IMG/VR virus record: IMGVR_UViG_3300046460_000197
Coordinates: 1-62,602 of that record
Direction: 5' to 3' (one strand)
Source: a virus
Length of the DNA stretch: 62,602 nt
Shown: in pieces, positions 2-62,602 of the stretch
Numbering within the stretch: position 1 is the stretch's first letter
Layout of the letters: each line of letters begins with the position of its first letter
Notes under the pieces: model-generated
What the model was told of the DNA's origin: nothing
The model's input: only the letters and a program-made list of their open reading frames with translations
Databases searched by the model: none
Position numbers and translations under genes: made by a program

Positions 2-448
2 CAGGGGTCCGAAAACCGGACCTCTAGGGGTCCGGTCACCGGACCCCATAACCAGAACCACAGAAACCACGTAGAAGAAGAAGCTTCTGTTGAGGCTCCG
101 GCTCGCCAGATCAGCAGCGAGCAGAAGCGCGAGTTCGGCCGGTTCTGGCACAACCACCCGAAGAGCAAGGACTACGACAAGACCCTCGAGGCGTGGACCG
201 AAGCGGTCCTCGCCGGAGCGGACCCCGTAGCCATCTCGGCCGCCGCCCTTGCCTATGCCCGCGAGATGGCTGGCCAGGAATTCCGATTCGTCAAGCAGTC
301 CGCGAACTGGGTCCGCGAGCGCCGCTATGAGGACAAGTTCGCCCCCGAGCCGAGCCCGGACGGCCGCCCCTCGCTGCGCGCCGTCTCCGGCGGCTACCAG
401 CCGTACCGCAACCCCACCGACCAATCCGTCTACGACGAGGACTTCTGA
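2..448 (+). CDS. C-terminal part of junction-spanning replication-initiator-like protein (continues from 62202..62602)
   Basis: Open frame from nt 2 to TGA 446-448 (QGSENRTSRGPVTGPHNQ...RNPTDQSVYDEDF*). It is in frame with the 62202 ORF when the ends are joined, has unbiased composition, and lies immediately upstream of the DnaC-like and DnaB genes. Confidence 0.6.
   Translation, partial: QGSENRTSRGPVTGPHNQNHRNHVEEEASVEAPARQISSEQKREFGRFWHNHPKSKDYDKTLEAWTEAVLAGADPVAISAAALAYAREMAGQEFRFVKQSANWVRERRYEDKFAPEPSPDGRPSLRAVSGGYQPYRNPTDQSVYDEDF
6..45. repeat. Iteron copies 4 and 5 of the origin-like array (GGTCCGAAAACCGGACC 6-22; GGTCCGGTCACCGGACC 29-45)
   Basis: 17-bp elements with perfect inverted arms GGTCCG/CGGACC, continuing the array at 62496-62602. 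Confidence 0.6.
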
Positions 449-1158
449 TGCAGTACATCCCGCCCGCCAGCCTGCGAGGCCAGAACACCGCCCCGCTCCT
501 CGCCGCCCGCGGCCTCGCCGCCGACTGGCTCGACCTCAACGACTTCGACCCCCACAGTCCCGCCAACGTCGCCCGCTACACCTACGCCGAGGTCTCCCGC
601 CTGGTGCCCTTCCACTACCGCGGCGCCGTCACCTCGCTGCCGCAGCTGGCCGCCTGGATCGACACGCTCGTTGCCGCCGCCCGCGAATGGCAGGCCGAGC
701 GGGGCGCACCGATCGCCAGCATCATCCACGGCCCCTCGCTGCTGCTCCTCGGCGCCACCGGCGTCGGCAAGACCCACGAGGCCTACGGGGCGATGCGGGA
801 GCTGGCCGTGACCGGAGTCCGCGGCGAGTGGGCCGTGACGACCGCCGCCGACCTGTACGCGGCCCTGCGCCCCCGCCACGGCGTCGACTCGGAGGCCGAG
901 TTCCGCCGCTACCGGGACGCCCGCCTGCTCCTCATCGACGACCTCGGGGCCGAGCGCAAGCCCACCGAGTTCACCGAAGAGATCAACTTCCGGCTGATCA
1001 ACCACCGCTACGAGCATCACCTTCCCACCCTGATGACCTCCAACGTCGACCCCAAGGAGCTTGCCGGCCGCCTCGGCGACCGCGTCGTCTCCCGCCTCGC
1101 CGAGATGTGCCAGCGCGTCCCGATGAAGGGCAACGACCGCCGGAGGACCGCCGCGTGA
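448..1158 (+). CDS. DnaC/IstB-like AAA+ helicase loader
   Basis: 236 aa. Walker A LLLLGATGVGKTH, Walker B LLLIDDLG. ATGA overlap with the upstream ORF and GTGA overlap with dnaB. Confidence 0.8.
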   Translation: MQYIPPASLRGQNTAPLLAARGLAADWLDLNDFDPHSPANVARYTYAEVSRLVPFHYRGAVTSLPQLAAWIDTLVAAAREWQAERGAPIASIIHGPSLLLLGATGVGKTHEAYGAMRELAVTGVRGEWAVTTAADLYAALRPRHGVDSEAEFRRYRDARLLLIDDLGAERKPTEFTEEINFRLINHRYEHHLPTLMTSNVDPKELAGRLGDRVVSRLAEMCQRVPMKGNDRRRTAA

Positions 1159-2543
1159 CCACCGACACCGAGATGTGGGTCGCCGACGAGGCCGCCCTCG
1201 ACTCCGCCCCGCGGCCGCCCGAGCGGCCCCGCGACGTCGAGGCCGAACGCATCCTCGTCGCCACCGCCATGCAGCAGCCGGCCGTCATCGACGAGCTCGC
1301 CGCCGAAGGATTCGACCCCGCCGACATCACCACCGACGCCTACCGCTGGATCTGGTGGGCCGTGGAAGAGCTCCGCACCCACTTCCGGGACGGGGAACTC
1401 CGCCACCTCGCCGTCCACCGCCAGCTCGAGGCCTGGCACGCCGACGGCCGCATGCCCAGCACCCGCGTCCCCAGCCCCGAACAGCTCTTCGAGCTCAACC
1501 TGTCCGCCCACCCGGGCGCCGCATCCTGGTACGCCGCCCGCGTCGTCAAGAAGGCCGTCGCCGCCCGCGTCGTCGCCCTCGGCTACGACGCCATCCTCAA
1601 GGGCACCTCGCCGGCCTTCGACGAGGACACCGACGTCGCCGCGATCCAGGCCGACCTCGACGGCGCCATCCGACCGACCGAAGATGCCGAACTCTCCGCG
1701 ATCGGCGACCTGGTCGGCGGGAGCCTGGTCCGCGCCGTCACCCCGCCCACCGACGAAGATCGCGTTCCCACCGGCTTCATGGACCTCGACAGCCTGTTCT
1801 CCGGCGGGTTCACCGGCGGGCAGATGGTCGTCGTCGGCGCGCGGCCGGCGATGGGCAAGTCGACGCTCGCCCAGGACTTCGCCCGCGGCGCCGCCATCCG
1901 CGCGAAGATCCCCACGCTCATCGAGTCGCTGGAGATGAGCAAGGACGACCTGTCCGACCGGATCCTGTGCGCCGAAGCCCGCATCCCCCTGCACCACCTG
2001 CGACAGGGCATCGTCTCCGACAGCGACGTCGCCCGCGCCGCGGCCCGCGTGCAGGACACCATCGCCGACGCCCCGCTCTACATCAACGACGGCGCCCTGC
2101 TGTCCCTGGCGAGCCTGCGCGCCCGAGTCCGCAACCTCGTCCGTACCCGCGGACTCCGCCTCGTGATCATCGACTACCTGCAGCTCATGCAGGTCGGCCG
2201 GGCCGACAACCGGCAGCAGGCCGTTGCCGACCTGTCCCGCGGGCTGAAGCTCCTGGCGAAGGACTTCGACATCACCGTCGTCGTCCTGTGCCAGCTCAAC
2301 CGCGGGCCCGAGCAGCGCACCGAGAAGAAGCCGATGGTGTCCGACCTGCGCGAGTCCGGGGCGATCGAGCAGGACGCCGACATCGTGATCCTGCTGCACC
2401 GCGAGGACGCCTACGACAAGGAGACCCCGCGGGCCGGCGAGGCGGACCTGATCGTCGGCAAGCACCGCAACGGGCCCACGGCCACGATCACCGCCGCGTT
2501 CCAGGGTCACTTCGCCCGCTTCTGCGACATGGCCCAGACCTGA
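1155..2543 (+). CDS. dnaB: Replicative DNA helicase DnaB
   Basis: GTG at 1155 inside the long frame 249..2543. The upstream part of that frame is R/P-rich off-frame junk. Motifs: GFMDLD, GARPAMGKST (Walker A), VIIDYLQLM, SDLRESGAIEQDADIV. Confidence 0.9.
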   Translation: MTTDTEMWVADEAALDSAPRPPERPRDVEAERILVATAMQQPAVIDELAAEGFDPADITTDAYRWIWWAVEELRTHFRDGELRHLAVHRQLEAWHADGRMPSTRVPSPEQLFELNLSAHPGAASWYAARVVKKAVAARVVALGYDAILKGTSPAFDEDTDVAAIQADLDGAIRPTEDAELSAIGDLVGGSLVRAVTPPTDEDRVPTGFMDLDSLFSGGFTGGQMVVVGARPAMGKSTLAQDFARGAAIRAKIPTLIESLEMSKDDLSDRILCAEARIPLHHLRQGIVSDSDVARAAARVQDTIADAPLYINDGALLSLASLRARVRNLVRTRGLRLVIIDYLQLMQVGRADNRQQAVADLSRGLKLLAKDFDITVVVLCQLNRGPEQRTEKKPMVSDLRESGAIEQDADIVILLHREDAYDKETPRAGEADLIVGKHRNGPTATITAAFQGHFARFCDMAQT

Positions 2544-46656: not shown

Positions 46657-47697
46657 TTGCCGAAGGAGCTTGTACCGGTAGAAACCGCTGAGATCGTCGT
46701 CGAGGTGCCTTCGGGCAGTCGTGATCGGCACGTCTCTGACGAGACCGCCGCGGACCTCAAGCGCGCCACCGCGGTCAACACCGACCGGGCCTACGCGCGA
46801 TGGTGGGACATGGCCCTCAACTGGTGCGCGAGCGAGGGGCGGACCCCCCTTCCCATGACGGCTGAGACAGTCGCCGAGTTCATCGGCCATCTCAAGCGGT
46901 CCGTCTCGCCCAAGACCGGCAAGCCCTACTCGCCGGCCAGCCTCGACCAGGCGCTCTCCGCCATCCGTACAGCCCACTTCCGCGCCGGGTTCGAAGGGCA
47001 GCCGCAGTCCCGCGCCGCCCGCGACATCATCAAGGTCCACCGCCAAGACCGAGCGCGCGCTGGGTGGCGCCCGCGCCGGGCCAAGCCCATCACTCTCGAC
47101 GTCCTGCGCCTCCTGCTTACCCAGTGCGACACCGAATCGCTCAGCGGACGACGGGATGCCACGATCCTGATCCTCGGCTACGGCCTCATGGGGCGCCGCT
47201 CCGAGCTGGCCGCCTGCACCATCGACCAGGTGACCGTCACTGACGAGTGGGTCACGGTCTTCATCCCCTTGTCGAAGACCGACACGAACGCCCAGGGTGA
47301 AGACGTCGACGTCCCCCGGGGCATCGCTCCGGACATCGACGCGGGCGCCATCGTCGGTTCCTATCTGGAAGCGCTCGCGGGGCGCGGCATCACAAGTGGC
47401 CATCTGCTTCGCCGCATCGACAAGTGGGGCAACGTCGGCGCCGGCATGACCGCCGCCACCATCAACGACATCGTGAAGAAGCTGGCCGCCGACGCCAACC
47501 TGACCGACGCGGAACGGACGACCGCTCACGGCCTGCGGGCAGGAGCGCCGACCGATGCAGCTGAGCGGGGCGTCCCCATCCCCTTCATCGCCGAGCATGG
47601 GCGTTGGAGCAAGAACTCCACGCAGGTGCTCACCTACGTCCGCCCCGCGGACCGGCGCCGCAACAACCCGCTCCTACCGCGCGACAGCCGGGCCTGA
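46657..47697 (+). CDS. Cre-like tyrosine recombinase
   Basis: 346 aa, TTG 46657 located 8 nt after AAAGGAG. Catalytic signature GRRSELA (R), HGLRAGAPTDAAERG (HxxR), GRWSKNSTQVLTYVR (W...Y), closely parallel to Cre HSARVGAARDMA...GGWTNVNIVMNYIR. Confidence 0.85.
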   Translation: MPKELVPVETAEIVVEVPSGSRDRHVSDETAADLKRATAVNTDRAYARWWDMALNWCASEGRTPLPMTAETVAEFIGHLKRSVSPKTGKPYSPASLDQALSAIRTAHFRAGFEGQPQSRAARDIIKVHRQDRARAGWRPRRAKPITLDVLRLLLTQCDTESLSGRRDATILILGYGLMGRRSELAACTIDQVTVTDEWVTVFIPLSKTDTNAQGEDVDVPRGIAPDIDAGAIVGSYLEALAGRGITSGHLLRRIDKWGNVGAGMTAATINDIVKKLAADANLTDAERTTAHGLRAGAPTDAAERGVPIPFIAEHGRWSKNSTQVLTYVRPADRRRNNPLLPRDSRA

Positions 47698-51069: not shown

Positions 51070-52332
51070 TCAACTCTCAGACTTGGCGGGGATTTGGGGG
51101 ACCGGGCCGAACTCGCGACGGTCGACGACCGTCCGCAGAGACTGCTCCCATCGGGACTGCAACGTCTCTGCGATCTTCAGTTCCATCGTCAGCGTCGTAT
51201 GGGAGTAGGTCCCCTCGACGCCCTGGAGCGCGTGGCCCATGCGCTCCTCTACCGCCACTCTAGGATGCCCGTCCTCGTCGAGCCAGACCTTGTGCGAGTG
51301 GCGCAGTCCGTGCGGCACCAGCCCTTCAACGCCCAGCACCGGCCGGACACCGGCCCGGTAGCCCACCCGCGGTTTCGACGGCCGCTCCGGACGCCCTTCG
51401 ACCATGAACCGCCACGGACCGGAGTACCAGGCCCCGCTCCGCAGTAGCCGGCCGCCCTTCGGCGCCGTGAACACCCACTCCGAGTCCGGCCGCGAAGCGA
51501 GCAGTTGCCGAAGGAGGGCGGCGAGGAACGGCGGGATAATGAGACCGCGACCCGAGTCGTACTTGGCGGGGATCTCCGTGAATGCGCCGTCGACGTACTG
51601 GCTTTGCTGCTGCGCGTGCAGACGGGCGCCCTGCCCGCGGTCGACCAGCTCCAACTGATCCCGGTGCACGGCGGCCAGTTCGCCGATCCGCAGACCCGTG
51701 TAGGCCGAGGCGAGAACGAGGGCGTACTCGTTCAGTCCATACATCTCCAGCCCGTTGCGGGCTATCAGCAGGGCCTGGCGAGGGGTGGCGATGACCTTGT
51801 CGTCCTTCGGCTTCGGCTCGTACTTCCCGCGCCGGCCGGACTTGCGCGCGGCCACCGGGTTGTCGGCACGCAGCCGCTCAGAGACCGCGTCGTCCATCAT
51901 TGTGCGGAATGTCGACACGATGGCATCGGCGTAGTTCTTGGAGACCTGCTGCCGGATCCGCTTCTCCCAGGTGACGATCGCTGTGGGGGACAGATCTCCG
52001 ATCGCCACACCTCCCCACTCGGGGAGGATCTGGTTCTTCAGCCGGAGCCGGTACTCCTTCTCTGTGAGCGGGCCGACGTCGATGGACGGAAGCCAGGCAG
52101 CGGCCCACTCTGCGACCGTGGTGCGGCCGTCGCGCGGGTTGTAGAACTGCTTCCGACGGACGTCGGTCTCGAGGCCTTGGGCGTACTGCTCGGCAGAGCG
52201 TTCCGAGTGGAACGGCTGCCCGTTGTCGTCTTTGGAGACGGAACCCCACTTGCCGTTGGGGAGCTTGTACCGGCCTCGGTACCGCCACTTACGTGCGCGC
52301 TTGTCGTAGCCGCGCTTCTCGGCGTGAGCCAT
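51070..52332 (-). CDS. int: Tyrosine integrase
   Basis: 420 aa. AYTGLRIGELAAV (R), HGLRHSHKVWL (HxxR), MGHALQGVEGTYSH (H...Y). The N-terminal arm-binding-like region RKWRYRGRYKLPNGKW is also present. Confidence 0.9.
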   Translation of the reverse strand: MAHAEKRGYDKRARKWRYRGRYKLPNGKWGSVSKDDNGQPFHSERSAEQYAQGLETDVRRKQFYNPRDGRTTVAEWAAAWLPSIDVGPLTEKEYRLRLKNQILPEWGGVAIGDLSPTAIVTWEKRIRQQVSKNYADAIVSTFRTMMDDAVSERLRADNPVAARKSGRRGKYEPKPKDDKVIATPRQALLIARNGLEMYGLNEYALVLASAYTGLRIGELAAVHRDQLELVDRGQGARLHAQQQSQYVDGAFTEIPAKYDSGRGLIIPPFLAALLRQLLASRPDSEWVFTAPKGGRLLRSGAWYSGPWRFMVEGRPERPSKPRVGYRAGVRPVLGVEGLVPHGLRHSHKVWLDEDGHPRVAVEERMGHALQGVEGTYSHTTLTMELKIAETLQSRWEQSLRTVVDRREFGPVPQIPAKSES

Positions 52333-59459: not shown

Positions 59460-60316
59460 CCGTGAAGCCGCTCGCCGAACACGGAACCACAGCCCGCGCC
59501 AAAGGGCGCCCCTCCGCAGGCATCCCCGGCTGCCCCTGCCCCCGCTGCCGCCGCGCCGAAAACGCCTACGACAAGCGCCGCCGCTTCCTCAACCAGACCG
59601 GCCGCACCCTCATGGTCGACACCGCCCCCGTCGCCGCACACCTCCGAGGCCTCTTCGCCGCAGGAGCCGGCTGGATCCAGCTCGCCGCGATCTCCGGCTG
59701 CTCCACCTCCACCCTGCACAACCTGCTCACCGAGCAGAACCCGCGCTGCCGCCGCGCCACCGCCAACAAGATCCTCGCCATCCAGCCCGGTGACGCCATT
59801 CCCGACCACCGCGGCATCCCCGCCACCGGCACCGTCCGCAGGGTCCGCGCACTCATGACCCTCGCCCACACCTGCCGGGCAATCAGCCAGGCCTGCCAGA
59901 TCGACCACAGCACGCTCTCCGACCTCCTCACCGGCCGGCTGGACGCCGTATCCATCGGCCTCGCCAACAGGGTCGCCGACGGCTATCGCACCCTCAGCCG
60001 AACCACTGGAGCATCCGCCCGGTCCCGCAACCGGGCCACCCGCGAACGCTGGGCACCGCCTGCCGCCTGGGACGACGACACCATCGACGACCCGAACGCC
60101 CAGCCCGAGTACGGCCGCGAGCTCAGCTTCCACGAGCGGGCCGAACTCCGCCGCGAAGAGATCATCCACTTCGCCTGGCACGGCGACACCCCCGAGCAGA
60201 TCCTCGCCCGCCTCAACGGCGAGATGTCCATCTCCACCGTCCGCCAGATCGTCCAGGACTGGCGCACCGGCCAGAAGCGCGACCGTCGTCCCAACTCCCT
60301 GAAGGAAGCCGCCTGA
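59456..60316 (+). CDS. Hypothetical DNA-binding-like protein (286 aa)
   Basis: N-terminal CPCPRCRR, repeated HTH-like segments (ISGCSTSTLHNLL, QACQIDHSTLSDLL) and a C-terminal MSISTVRQIVQDWR. Confidence 0.55.
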   Translation: MTVKPLAEHGTTARAKGRPSAGIPGCPCPRCRRAENAYDKRRRFLNQTGRTLMVDTAPVAAHLRGLFAAGAGWIQLAAISGCSTSTLHNLLTEQNPRCRRATANKILAIQPGDAIPDHRGIPATGTVRRVRALMTLAHTCRAISQACQIDHSTLSDLLTGRLDAVSIGLANRVADGYRTLSRTTGASARSRNRATRERWAPPAAWDDDTIDDPNAQPEYGRELSFHERAELRREEIIHFAWHGDTPEQILARLNGEMSISTVRQIVQDWRTGQKRDRRPNSLKEAA

Positions 60317-62118
60317 TGTACCGCAACGACAACGACGCGCTCACCGTCATGGACTGGTTCTGCGGCGCTGGTGGCTCCAGCCAGGGCATGCACTCCATTC
60401 CGGGTGTCCGGATGGAGCGGGCCGCGAACCACTGGGAGCGGGCGATCGAATCGCACGCCGCGAACTTCCCCACCGTCGACCACTACCGCGGCGACATCCG
60501 CGAAGCGCCGGTGGACAAGTGGCCCGTCACCGACATCTTCTGGGCGAGCCCCGAATGCCCGCAGTGGTCCAACGCCCGCGGCAAGAAGCGCGACTTCGAC
60601 GCCTCCCTCCAGGGCGACCTCTTCGACGGCTTCGGACCGTCCGAGGAAGTCGAACGATCCCGCGCCCTGATGGAGGAGGTGCCGCTGTACCTGCGCGGAG
60701 TCCAGCAACGCGGCGGCCTCGTCAAGGCCGGCGTGGTTGAGAACGTCGTCGACGTGCGCGCCTGGGACCAGTGGGACCGGTGGCTCGGCGAGCTCCACAA
60801 GCTCGGCTACCGCACCCGCGTCATCGCCCTCAACAGCATGCACGCCGACCCGCGCACCGTGCACAAGGCGCCGCAGAGCAGGGACCGCCTGTACGTCGCC
60901 TACTGGCACGCCTCCCTCGGCCGGACCCCGGACTGGGACAAGTGGCTTCGGCCGCGCGCCTGGTGCACGAGCTGCGACATGTGGGTGCAGGCCGTGCAGC
61001 GCTTCAAGCAGCCCGGCCGCGACATGGGCCGCTACCGCCAGCAGTACGTGTACCGCTGCCCGAACGTGGCCTGCCGCAACCAGGTCGTCGAGCCGGAGAC
61101 CCTGCCCGCCGCCGTCGCCATCGACTGGACCCTGCCCGGGCAGCGCATCGGTGACCGGACCAAGCCCCTCGCCGACAAGACCCTCGCCCGCATCCAGGCC
61201 GGCCTCGACAAGTTCGCCCGGCCCATCACCCTCGAAGCCGCAGGCAACACCTTCGAACGACGCCCCGGCGTCCGCACCTGGCCCGTTGACGCACCCCTCA
61301 CCACCCAGACCACCACACCCACCAAGGCCGTCGCCTACGAGCCGTTCATGGTCCCGGCCGGCGGCACCTGGCGCAACGACCCCTCCAGCGTGCTGGACCC
61401 GATGGCCTGCCGGACCACCCGCGAGAACGACGGCCTCGCCATCCCGCCCCTCCTCATCCCCGTCGAAGGCCGCGACGGGAAGGAGCCCGCGTCCGCGAAC
61501 AACCCGCTCCGCACCCAGACCGCGCGCAACGAGACCGGCCTTGCCTGGCTGCCGTTCATGGTCACCATGCGCGGCGGCGGCGACCAGCTCCGAGGCCGCT
61601 CCATCAGCGAGCCCGTCGGCACCGTGTCGGCGAACGGCAACCACCACGGCCTGGTCACTCCGAACCTGCCCGCGTTCGTGATGCGCAACAACGGCAGCAC
61701 CGGTGACGGCGGCGAGCACTGCACCACAGCGGCCGAGTACTTCCACACCATGACCACGGCCGGCCACCAGTCCCTCGTCACCTGGGAACACCTTCTCGTC
61801 CCCTACTACGGCAACGGCACGGCGAAGACCGTCCGCGAGCCCGTCGGCACCCTGTCCACCCGCGACCGGTACGCCCTCGTCCAGGGCAACGTCGACATCA
61901 ACGACGTCCTCTTCCGGATGCTCGAGCCCCACGAGATCGGCCGCGCGATGAGCTTCGCCGATCAGTACATCGTCCTGGGCTCCAAGCGCGAACGGGTCCG
62001 CCAGTACGGCAACGCCGTCACCCCGAACTGCGCCGAAGTCATCGTCTCCGCACTCGTCGAAGCGATCACCGGCGAGGACATCGAGCGGCACGCCGAGCCG
62101 CAGTTGGCCGCCGCGTGA
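60316..62118 (+). CDS. DNA (cytosine-5) methyltransferase, orphan
   Basis: 600 aa. Motif I DWFCGAGGSSQG, motif IV SPECPQWS, motif VI ENV, motif X QYGNAVTP, and a very long variable region. No adjacent restriction endonuclease was recognised. Confidence 0.85.
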   Translation: MYRNDNDALTVMDWFCGAGGSSQGMHSIPGVRMERAANHWERAIESHAANFPTVDHYRGDIREAPVDKWPVTDIFWASPECPQWSNARGKKRDFDASLQGDLFDGFGPSEEVERSRALMEEVPLYLRGVQQRGGLVKAGVVENVVDVRAWDQWDRWLGELHKLGYRTRVIALNSMHADPRTVHKAPQSRDRLYVAYWHASLGRTPDWDKWLRPRAWCTSCDMWVQAVQRFKQPGRDMGRYRQQYVYRCPNVACRNQVVEPETLPAAVAIDWTLPGQRIGDRTKPLADKTLARIQAGLDKFARPITLEAAGNTFERRPGVRTWPVDAPLTTQTTTPTKAVAYEPFMVPAGGTWRNDPSSVLDPMACRTTRENDGLAIPPLLIPVEGRDGKEPASANNPLRTQTARNETGLAWLPFMVTMRGGGDQLRGRSISEPVGTVSANGNHHGLVTPNLPAFVMRNNGSTGDGGEHCTTAAEYFHTMTTAGHQSLVTWEHLLVPYYGNGTAKTVREPVGTLSTRDRYALVQGNVDINDVLFRMLEPHEIGRAMSFADQYIVLGSKRERVRQYGNAVTPNCAEVIVSALVEAITGEDIERHAEPQLAAA

Positions 62119-62201
62119 CCGCCGTCTGCCGGCCGCGCGCCGGACCCTGACCCGCCGCCAGTGACCCGCCGCCAACCAGAGCTACCGAGAGAAGAGACCA
62201 C

Positions 62202-62602
62202 GTGAGCATCGACGCCATGTACTGGGTCTGGCTCCACTCCCAGTCGAAGGGAGCCGGACGGCACGTCATGCTGGCAATCGCCAACCGGATCACCGGCGAC
62301 GACGGCGCCGCGCGGGTCAGCACTGCGGAGCTCGCGCGGTTCAGCAACGCAGCCCGATCGTCCGTCATCAAGGCCATCGACGCCCTCGTGAAGTCCGGCG
62401 AACTGGACCTTCTCGAGGAAGGCCGAGGGACTCGGCCGACGCTCTACAGGATCCCCGGAACGGTCGGATTCGCGCGCCCCGACTTCGGTTCTAGAGGTCC
62501 GGTGACCGGACCCCTAGAGGGTGGCCAGGGGTCCGAAAACCGGACCGCTAGGGGAAACGCTAGGGGTCCGGTGACCGGACCCCAGGGGTCCGAAAACCGG
62601 AC
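62202..62602 (+). CDS. N-terminal part of the replication-initiator-like wHTH protein (runs off the window end and continues at nt 2)
   Basis: GTG 62202 after GAGAGAAGAGA. MYWVWLHSQSKGAGRHVMLAIANRITGDDGAARVSTAELARFSNAARSSVIKAIDALVKSGELDLLEEG (phage/plasmid Rep-type wHTH). No stop before the window end. Confidence 0.65.
   Translation, partial: MSIDAMYWVWLHSQSKGAGRHVMLAIANRITGDDGAARVSTAELARFSNAARSSVIKAIDALVKSGELDLLEEGRGTRPTLYRIPGTVGFARPDFGSRGPVTGPLEGGQGSENRTARGNARGPVTGPQGSENR
62496..62602. repeat. Iteron array inside the initiator gene (copies 1-4): candidate ori
   Basis: GGTCCGGTGACCGGACC at 62496 and 62565; GGTCCGAAAACCGGACC at 62530 and 62587. Each has perfect inverted arms, and CTAGRGG motifs are interspersed. 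The array encodes the repeated peptides GPVTGP and GSENRT. Confidence 0.6.

Follow-up and report, generated by a model that had tools for sequence, protein, structure and literature searches.

The window analysed here is a complete IMG/VR virus record (IMGVR_UViG_3300046460_000197) of 62,602 bp and 69% GC, and megablast of the region against GenBank phages returned no near relatives. A predicted replication initiator gene spans the join of the record's two ends, and within its coding sequence lies an array of palindromic iterons. The genes and features of the locus are as follows.

60316-62118: large orphan C5 methyltransferase gene, directly upstream of the initiator
62202-62602, plus strand: 5' part of the initiator gene, GTG start; matches phrog_6643 and the O-like phrogs 8540 and 391
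62202-62486: winged-helix DNA-binding domain, residues 1-95, from the AlphaFold2 model and fold matches
62496-62512: iteron 1, GGTCCG-GTGAC-CGGACC, extended unit 62491-62517; frame 0, GPVTGP
62530-62546: iteron 2, GGTCCG-AAAAC-CGGACC, extended unit 62525-62551; frame +1, GSENRT
62565-62581: iteron 3, GGTCCG-GTGAC-CGGACC, with its flanks a perfect 21-bp palindrome; frame 0
6-22: iteron 4, GGTCCG-AAAAC-CGGACC, the same copy as 62587-62602 plus base 22; frame +1
29-45: iteron 5, GGTCCG-GTCAC-CGGACC, with its flanks a 21-bp palindrome; frame 0
46-95: A/T-rich, A+C-biased tract directly 3' of iteron 5, linker-coding, candidate DNA-unwinding element
22-448, plus strand: 3' part of the initiator gene (rest of the linker, C-domain, tail; stop codon 446-448); matches phrog_270, 9327 and 10293
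about 116-316: helical C-domain, with AlphaFold2 helices at residues 166-232
about 374-445: conserved C-terminal tail, associated with loader type
448-1158, plus strand: DnaC/IstB-like AAA+ helicase loader (Pfam IstB_IS21, 3.6e-10; phrog_50, 9e-37)
1155-2543, plus strand: phage-encoded DnaB-type replicative helicase (Pfam DnaB_C, 2.9e-87; phrog_19, 7.5e-79)

The initiator reading frame opens with a GTG at 62202, runs off the end of the window and resumes at base 22, specifying a protein of 275 amino acids. The start of the loader gene overlaps the initiator stop codon. On the other side, an 83-bp gap separates the methylase stop from the initiator start. This gap houses an exact tandem direct repeat, two copies of TGACCCGCCGCCA at a spacing of 14 bp (62148-62174), which could be a regulatory site. 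Scans for sigma-70 promoters and terminators around the initiator gene, including the 83-bp gap, found none.

The ends of the record share 21 bp (1-21 = 62582-62602), the mark of a circular assembly. A third occurrence of this 21-mer, which belongs to the iteron unit, is at 62525-62545; thus, the assembly junction falls inside repeats, and the copy number could be an artefact of assembly. Two relatives from other metagenomes address this concern. In L009 (88% amino acid identity) and L010 (86%), the gene is interior to its contig (63 kb and 60 kb, respectively), and each has a 275-residue reading frame with five sites at offsets identical to those in the window gene. Both the join and the five-site count can therefore be trusted, with circular closure validated solely through such relatives, which hold the gene inside their contigs. 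A different record, IMGVR_UViG_3300046499_000422 (68,059 bp), contains the same initiator gene twice (L012 and L013), approximately 57.5 kb apart; the probable explanation is a circular genome assembled with about 10 kb counted twice, the true length being less than 68 kb.

Searching the entire 62.6-kb record for exact GGTCCG-N5-CGGACC returns five copies, all of them in the array. Allowing up to one mismatch adds a single site in the whole window, at 47637, against a chance expectation of 1.39 per window, and none of 100 shuffled sequences reached six sites at that tolerance. The genome holds no second array and no other repeat cluster of the motif. Each 17-bp palindrome consists of two 6-bp half-sites spaced 11 bp apart, center to center, and successive iterons start 34, 35, 22, and 23 bp apart. 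All five CTAGRGG motifs in the window lie inside the array, and alignment of relatives reveals that this motif is the outer part of a longer dyad, CTAG-R-GGTCCG-N5-CGGACC-Y-CTAG. The sites occupy gene nucleotides 295-425 (residues 99-142), between the winged helix-turn-helix (wHTH) domain and the helical C-domain. Two relatives, L011 and L012, possess a sixth, degenerate unit. An earlier note, made from the DNA letters alone, had described much of this layout: five palindromic iterons placed 22-35 bp apart, CTAGRGG motifs interspersed among them, repeated peptides encoded by them, one iteron at 62587 that is the same copy as 6-22, and a reading frame that ends at 448 with DnaC-like and DnaB genes next. 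Our map bears out each of these points. In particular, the identity of the two terminal copies is upheld both by the terminal overlap and by the layouts of L009 and L010, and the peptides GPVTGP (frame 0) and GSENRT (frame +1) are evident in the translation.

What is conserved in the array is the DNA. The three sites with GTGAC or GTCAC spacers are read in frame 0 and yield GPVTGP, the two with AAAAC spacers are read in frame +1 and yield GSENRT; one DNA element thus gives rise to two unrelated peptides. We aligned the gene from five phages that share 69-89% amino acid identity. In this set, 58 of 60 arm columns are invariant, compared to 185 of 285 columns in the N-domain, and third-codon positions are invariant at 20 of 20 sites in the arms and at 35 of 95 in the N-domain (Fisher p=4e-8). 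The N5 spacer sequence is free to change, occurring as GTGAC, GTCAC, GCTAC, AAAAC, and GAAAC, and the peptide varies along with it, the frame-0 versions among relatives being GPVTGP, GPATGP, GPKTGP, and GPETGP. Because the arms are invariant while spacers and peptides change, selection, as judged from these alignments, acts on the DNA arms. These data bear on the notion that the repeats matter at the level of the peptide, as a flexible linker rich in glycine and proline that expanded by slippage, with palindromy incidental. The segment is indeed predicted to be disordered, and copy number ranges from 4 to 6 among relatives. A linker, however, would not be expected to use the same DNA element in two frames to specify unrelated peptides, nor to hold synonymous positions of the arms constant while the peptides change, and perfect dyad symmetry has no peptide rationale. 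We consider this explanation extremely improbable.

A link between the array and the protein that it interrupts comes from comparison of 39 homologous genes, including five from Streptomyces phages and 34 from IMG/VR relatives. The Streptomyces phages SV1, Picard, SoJo, ToastyFinz, and Eklok, at approximately 42% identity, have arrays of their own in the same place. Every homolog keeps the 6-5-6 geometry, with 4-6 copies, and the half-site is class specific. Specifically, the half-site changes together with a short motif located at the N-terminus of the predicted recognition helix: GGTCCG accompanies [AG]A[RK]S[ST] (19 distinct sequences), GGCCCG accompanies ASRSVVQ, GGGCCG accompanies [VA]SRSTAR, GGTACR accompanies ASRT[SA]V, GGTCCC accompanies VSKSVVV, GGTCGG accompanies CTRE, and GCTCGG accompanies CTQG. 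To place these classes, a maximum-likelihood tree was built from the N-domain with the recognition-helix segment masked. On that tree, the GGTCCG class appears in both main clades, with at least three changes, and GGTACR falls within a clade of GGTCCG sequences (support 100/99). The eight half-site classes require seven changes in all; the classes coincide in part with clades, and independent co-changes are few (~7). In Eklok (L007), gene nucleotides about 270-450 contain about six imperfect dyads, GGTCGGGAATCCCGGAC, of which a strict palindrome search finds one. Counts restricted to perfect palindromes therefore come out too low for some relatives.

Covariation of this kind is what cognate recognition of the sites by the encoded winged helix predicts. 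Readings based on hairpins, on peptides, or on a third-party protein do not predict it. The first of these would have the repeats form hairpins or cruciforms that affect mRNA stability, pause translation, or serve single-strand initiation, all independently of the wHTH domain. As single-stranded RNA or DNA, the array does fold strongly (-126.8 kcal/mol over 212 nt, z about -10 relative to shuffled sequences), and the arms change in compensatory fashion between classes. Nonetheless, a structural role gives no reason for arm sequence to track recognition-helix residues or for a fixed 6-5-6 geometry with a free spacer, and an Rfam scan produced no family above threshold, the only sub-threshold matches being generic miRNA-like hairpins. 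This possibility appears highly unlikely. The same judgment applies to the proposal that the sites are targets of some other protein, be it another phage wHTH protein or regulator, a host factor, or the adjacent C5 methyltransferase, which we regard as very improbable. As for the methylase, the arms contain CCGG and GGWCC, typical targets of C5 methylases, and an orphan gene for such an enzyme lies immediately upstream (60316-62118). Yet the classes GGTACG, GGCCCG, and GCTCGG lose or change those motifs while keeping the array, SV1-type relatives have arrays without an adjacent methylase, and the covariation is with the protein of the same gene.

Immediately beyond the last iteron, GC content drops. 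The 40-mer at 47/48-87 has 42.5% GC, tied for the lowest in the genome (mean 69.1%, sd 6.7%), and begins 1-2 nt past iteron 5. This tract is A+C-rich on the coding strand, and close relatives preserve it at the DNA level. For about 26 of 33 distinct homologs, the GC minimum of the gene begins no more than a few bases from where the last iteron ends. Cumulative GC skew provides no origin signal; it falls monotonically, since nearly all genes are on one strand.

The placement of the A/T-rich tract also helps to weigh an alternative in which the winged helix does bind the palindromes, chiefly for autoregulation or copy control (as a roadblock, by titration, or by handcuffing), while the true origin lies elsewhere. 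Plasmid iterons have dual roles, in origin function and in regulation, and the sites here are within the transcription unit of the initiator, loader, and DnaB genes. Moreover, helix and half-site covariation shows cognate recognition, not origin firing. On the other hand, a pure operator needs no A/T patch, and a conserved one abuts the array in most relatives. Nor does the genome contain a second array or any further cluster of motif repeats. Finally, the layout matches two embedded origins that have been proven experimentally, those of lambda and SPP1 (oriL). We view a primarily regulatory role as unlikely.

The PHROG profiles identify the gene as that of a replication initiator. The N-half matches phrog_6643, "replication initiation protein" (E=4e-21), as well as two PHROGs annotated as "replication initiation O-like," and the matches of the C-half are to phrog_270, 9327, and 10293, families of replication initiation or primosomal proteins. 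The match of the N-half to phrog_6643 covers profile positions 2-121 of 313, with the C-half in other PHROGs, while SV1 gp38 matches phrog_6643 from end to end (1.7e-87). By profile, the initiator is a mosaic that has only its N-module in common with PHROG 6643, the SV1 gp38 type. Pfam places the initiator in no family above threshold, the best match being HTH_36 (E=0.036), and includes no Rep_3-type match. Neither half matches the G38P family at E<=0.1. Likewise, Phage_rep_O (PF04492) is not matched at E<=0.1 by the N-half or by full-length orthologs, while lambda O scores 5.7e-36. The sole connection to the lambda O family is a weak one, through phrog_678 (E=1.4e-3); phrog_391, which the N-half matches here, is matched by the C-half of lambda O. 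Iteron plasmid Rep proteins are recognized by two winged helices and by direct repeats outside the gene; here, one wHTH domain is modelled and the palindromes are intragenic.

An AlphaFold2 model, made for the L009 ortholog (88% identical) from an alignment of 62 sequences, gives a winged helix-turn-helix at residues 1-95 (pLDDT about 90), a low-confidence segment at residues 98-160 (pLDDT below 50), and a helical domain at residues 166-232 (pLDDT about 87). The iterons and the A/T-rich tract together encode exactly this low-confidence segment, which the model accordingly predicts to be a disordered linker. Foldseek returned solely generic winged-helix matches, at E>=0.03 (MarR-like, ScoC, and the RepA_N structures 4pql and 4pt7 at E>=0.04), and so assigns no specific structural family; a sequence-profile search of the PDB produced one marginal match, of MarR type. 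The 154 database homologs, from Streptomyces or Kitasatospora chromosomes or from metagenomes, are all called "hypothetical protein," and Streptomyces genomes and phage records give members of the family no other label than "hypothetical protein" or "DNA binding protein."

The two sides of the array appear to evolve as separable parts. The protein of L012 (1501-2367) has the same N-domain and iterons as the window protein (69% amino acid identity), joined to a C-domain of the SV1 type. Conversely, initiators with unrelated N-domains and their own repeat arrays share the C-domain or the tail of the window protein. Judged from these sequences, specificity modules seem to be joined by recombination at the array.

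The family of the loader gene downstream follows the last ~20 residues of the initiator and not the C-domain type. Initiators with a YQPYRNPTDQSVYDEDF-like tail are followed by a homolog of the window's DnaC-like loader, those with other tails have a gene for an SV1 gp39-type protein next, and about 35 genes supply one or two exceptions only. C-domain type (A, FGxFW..PKSK; B, ARYFL) was considered as the predictor of loader family and fails, while the C-terminal tail predicts it. The pattern suggests that the tail is a docking peptide for the loader, with the confounder that tail-coding DNA abuts the loader gene, such that simple physical linkage may explain the association. The tail of ~20 residues (consensus LRAVSGGYQPYRNPTDQSVYDEDF; 374-445 in the window; also L017-L036 and L040-L071) is common to initiators with unrelated N-domains and differing C-domains. 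Its end is acidic and aromatic, reminiscent of SSB tails.

We offer a more specific idea tentatively, as possible but on balance doubtful: that the half-site, and hence the origin, is set by the first two to three residues of the recognition helix (AARS, ASRS, ASRT, VSKS, CTRE), and that the C-terminal peptide of ~20 residues (GGYQPYRNPTDQSVYDEDF) docks the DnaC-like loader. If both the code and the docking tail are real, then origin specificity and loader choice would be re-assorted independently by recombination within a translated origin.

We predict that the array and the A/T-rich tract form a theta-type, vegetative origin inside the initiator gene, and we put the probability of this reading at roughly 75%. 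By analogy, the best reading is a theta origin of the lambda O/ori type and the SPP1 G38P/oriL type, used in lytic growth. Dimers of the N-terminal winged helix would bind the five 17-bp palindromes, and the bound initiators would build an O-some-like nucleoprotein complex that destabilises or opens the adjoining A/T-rich tract at 46-95. Recruitment of the DnaC-like loader and the phage DnaB could then fall to the initiator's C-terminal part, with the conserved tail probably sharing in loader recruitment, and theta replication would proceed from there in lytic growth. Transcription may also pass through the origin, as it does in lambda. From the comparative evidence, we infer that binding, unwinding, loader recruitment, and the start of replication all take place at the array. 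The literature searched contained no binding, unwinding, or origin-mapping data for this phage or its homologs.

The earlier note had proposed a lambda O/ori-like embedded layout, and that proposal is supported at the sequence level: the intragenic array, the downstream A/T-rich tract, the loader gene, and the constraint on the DNA all agree with it. The alignment with related phages that it suggested found the repeats conserved as DNA and not as peptide (synonymous positions of the arms, 20/20), and homologous initiators, rather than lacking repeats, have arrays of their own at the same place. The note had left the origin as "vegetative or plasmid-state." The sequence evidence favors the vegetative half of that phrase. 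Specifically, Pfam Phage_integrase matches identify two tyrosine-recombinase genes, at 46657-47697 (plus strand) and 51070-52332 (minus strand), of which one is presumably the integrase beside attP and the other a second recombinase. The phage genome has no ParB and no serine recombinase. Given this gene content, the phage is an integrating temperate phage of a Streptomyces-like host, and an origin for a plasmid prophage is unlikely.

For this phage, the analysis supplies an exact candidate origin, comprising five sites and an unwinding tract. More broadly, dozens of Streptomyces phages and prophages share this translated-origin design, with the initiator protein and its site changing in step. 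To our knowledge, actinobacteriophage replication origins are almost entirely unmapped. The literature that we searched, in which subscription journals were thinly covered, contained no published description of such arrays in the initiators of SV1-like or other Streptomyces phages or actinophages. We anticipate uses in annotation and in the construction of Streptomyces replicons and phage-based vectors, and the family also offers a set of natural variants for the study of winged-helix specificity.

How does the locus compare to known systems? The nearest counterparts by descent are SV1 gp38 and the corresponding proteins of Picard, SoJo (gp39, "RepA-like replication initiator"), ToastyFinz, and Eklok, which are true homologs in the N-domain (E down to 4e-19). 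These phages likewise have 5-6 palindromes of 6-5-6 geometry in the same place, followed by an A/T-richer patch; their records do not annotate the arrays. They differ from the window in their half-sites (GGGCCG, or GTCSGG in Eklok), in recognition-helix residues, in C-domain type, and in loader family.

Streptomyces plasmids provide comparisons from the same host genus, with iteron-type origins bound by the replicon's own Rep. Chang, Kim, and Cohen reportedly placed the origin of the linear plasmids pSLA2 and pSCL within the rep gene. A later paper calls the origin of these plasmids "phage-like, centrally located" (PMC2974207, citing Chang, Kim & Cohen 1996). The theta plasmids pWTY27 and pFP11 have a Rep and iterons (PMC3583192); in pWTY27, unlike here, the iterons are non-coding and lie beside repAB. 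Among PLSDB plasmids, no homolog of either half was found except in one phage-like linear record, and the C-half matched nothing. That record, L074 (NZ_CP114204.1, Streptomyces nigrescens "plasmid phiDSM40276," 20.9 kb, linear), encodes a terminase, lambda-exonuclease/RecT, a serine recombinase, and the initiator homolog, a gene set that suggests a phage, or a piece of one, filed as a plasmid.

In layout, the closest parallels are phage SPP1 and phage lambda. In SPP1, oriL, composed of repeats and an A/T-rich unwinding element, is embedded in gene 38, and the genes for the G39P loader and the G40P DnaB-type helicase follow (PMC5737612). The order of initiator, loader, and DnaB genes is that of the module from 62202 across the join to 2543. 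The repeats, however, are of another kind: SPP1 has direct "AB box" repeats and a second copy, oriR, whereas the window has palindromes and no second array. The G38P family (pfam09524, PMC5737612) is also unmatched here.

Lambda shares the layout as well. In lambdoid phages, including Stx phages, ori-lambda lies inside the O gene, and P is next (PMC7466680). The origin in lambda, and the candidate origin in the window, sits in the middle of the initiator gene, right after the N-terminal DNA-binding domain; in lambda O, Phage_rep_O covers residues 22-115 and four iterons fall at residues about 117-145. Both have 4-6 dyad-symmetric iterons with a 6-5-6 core, TCCCTC-AAAAC-GAGGGA in lambda (NC_001416). 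In both, an A/T-rich tract immediately follows the iterons and the helicase-loader gene is next, the order in the annotated lambda record being iterons, A/T-rich tract, C-domain, and loader gene P. In both, the N-domain and iterons make up one specificity module and the C-part another. There are also differences. The window protein has no detectable membership in Phage_rep_O, such that the likeness is one of layout and mechanism only. The window has five sites with two alternating spacer types, its loader is AAA+ DnaC/IstB-like and not lambda P, the phage encodes its own DnaB, and the host is a high-GC actinobacterium. No new principle is involved: lambda and SPP1 established this layout decades ago.
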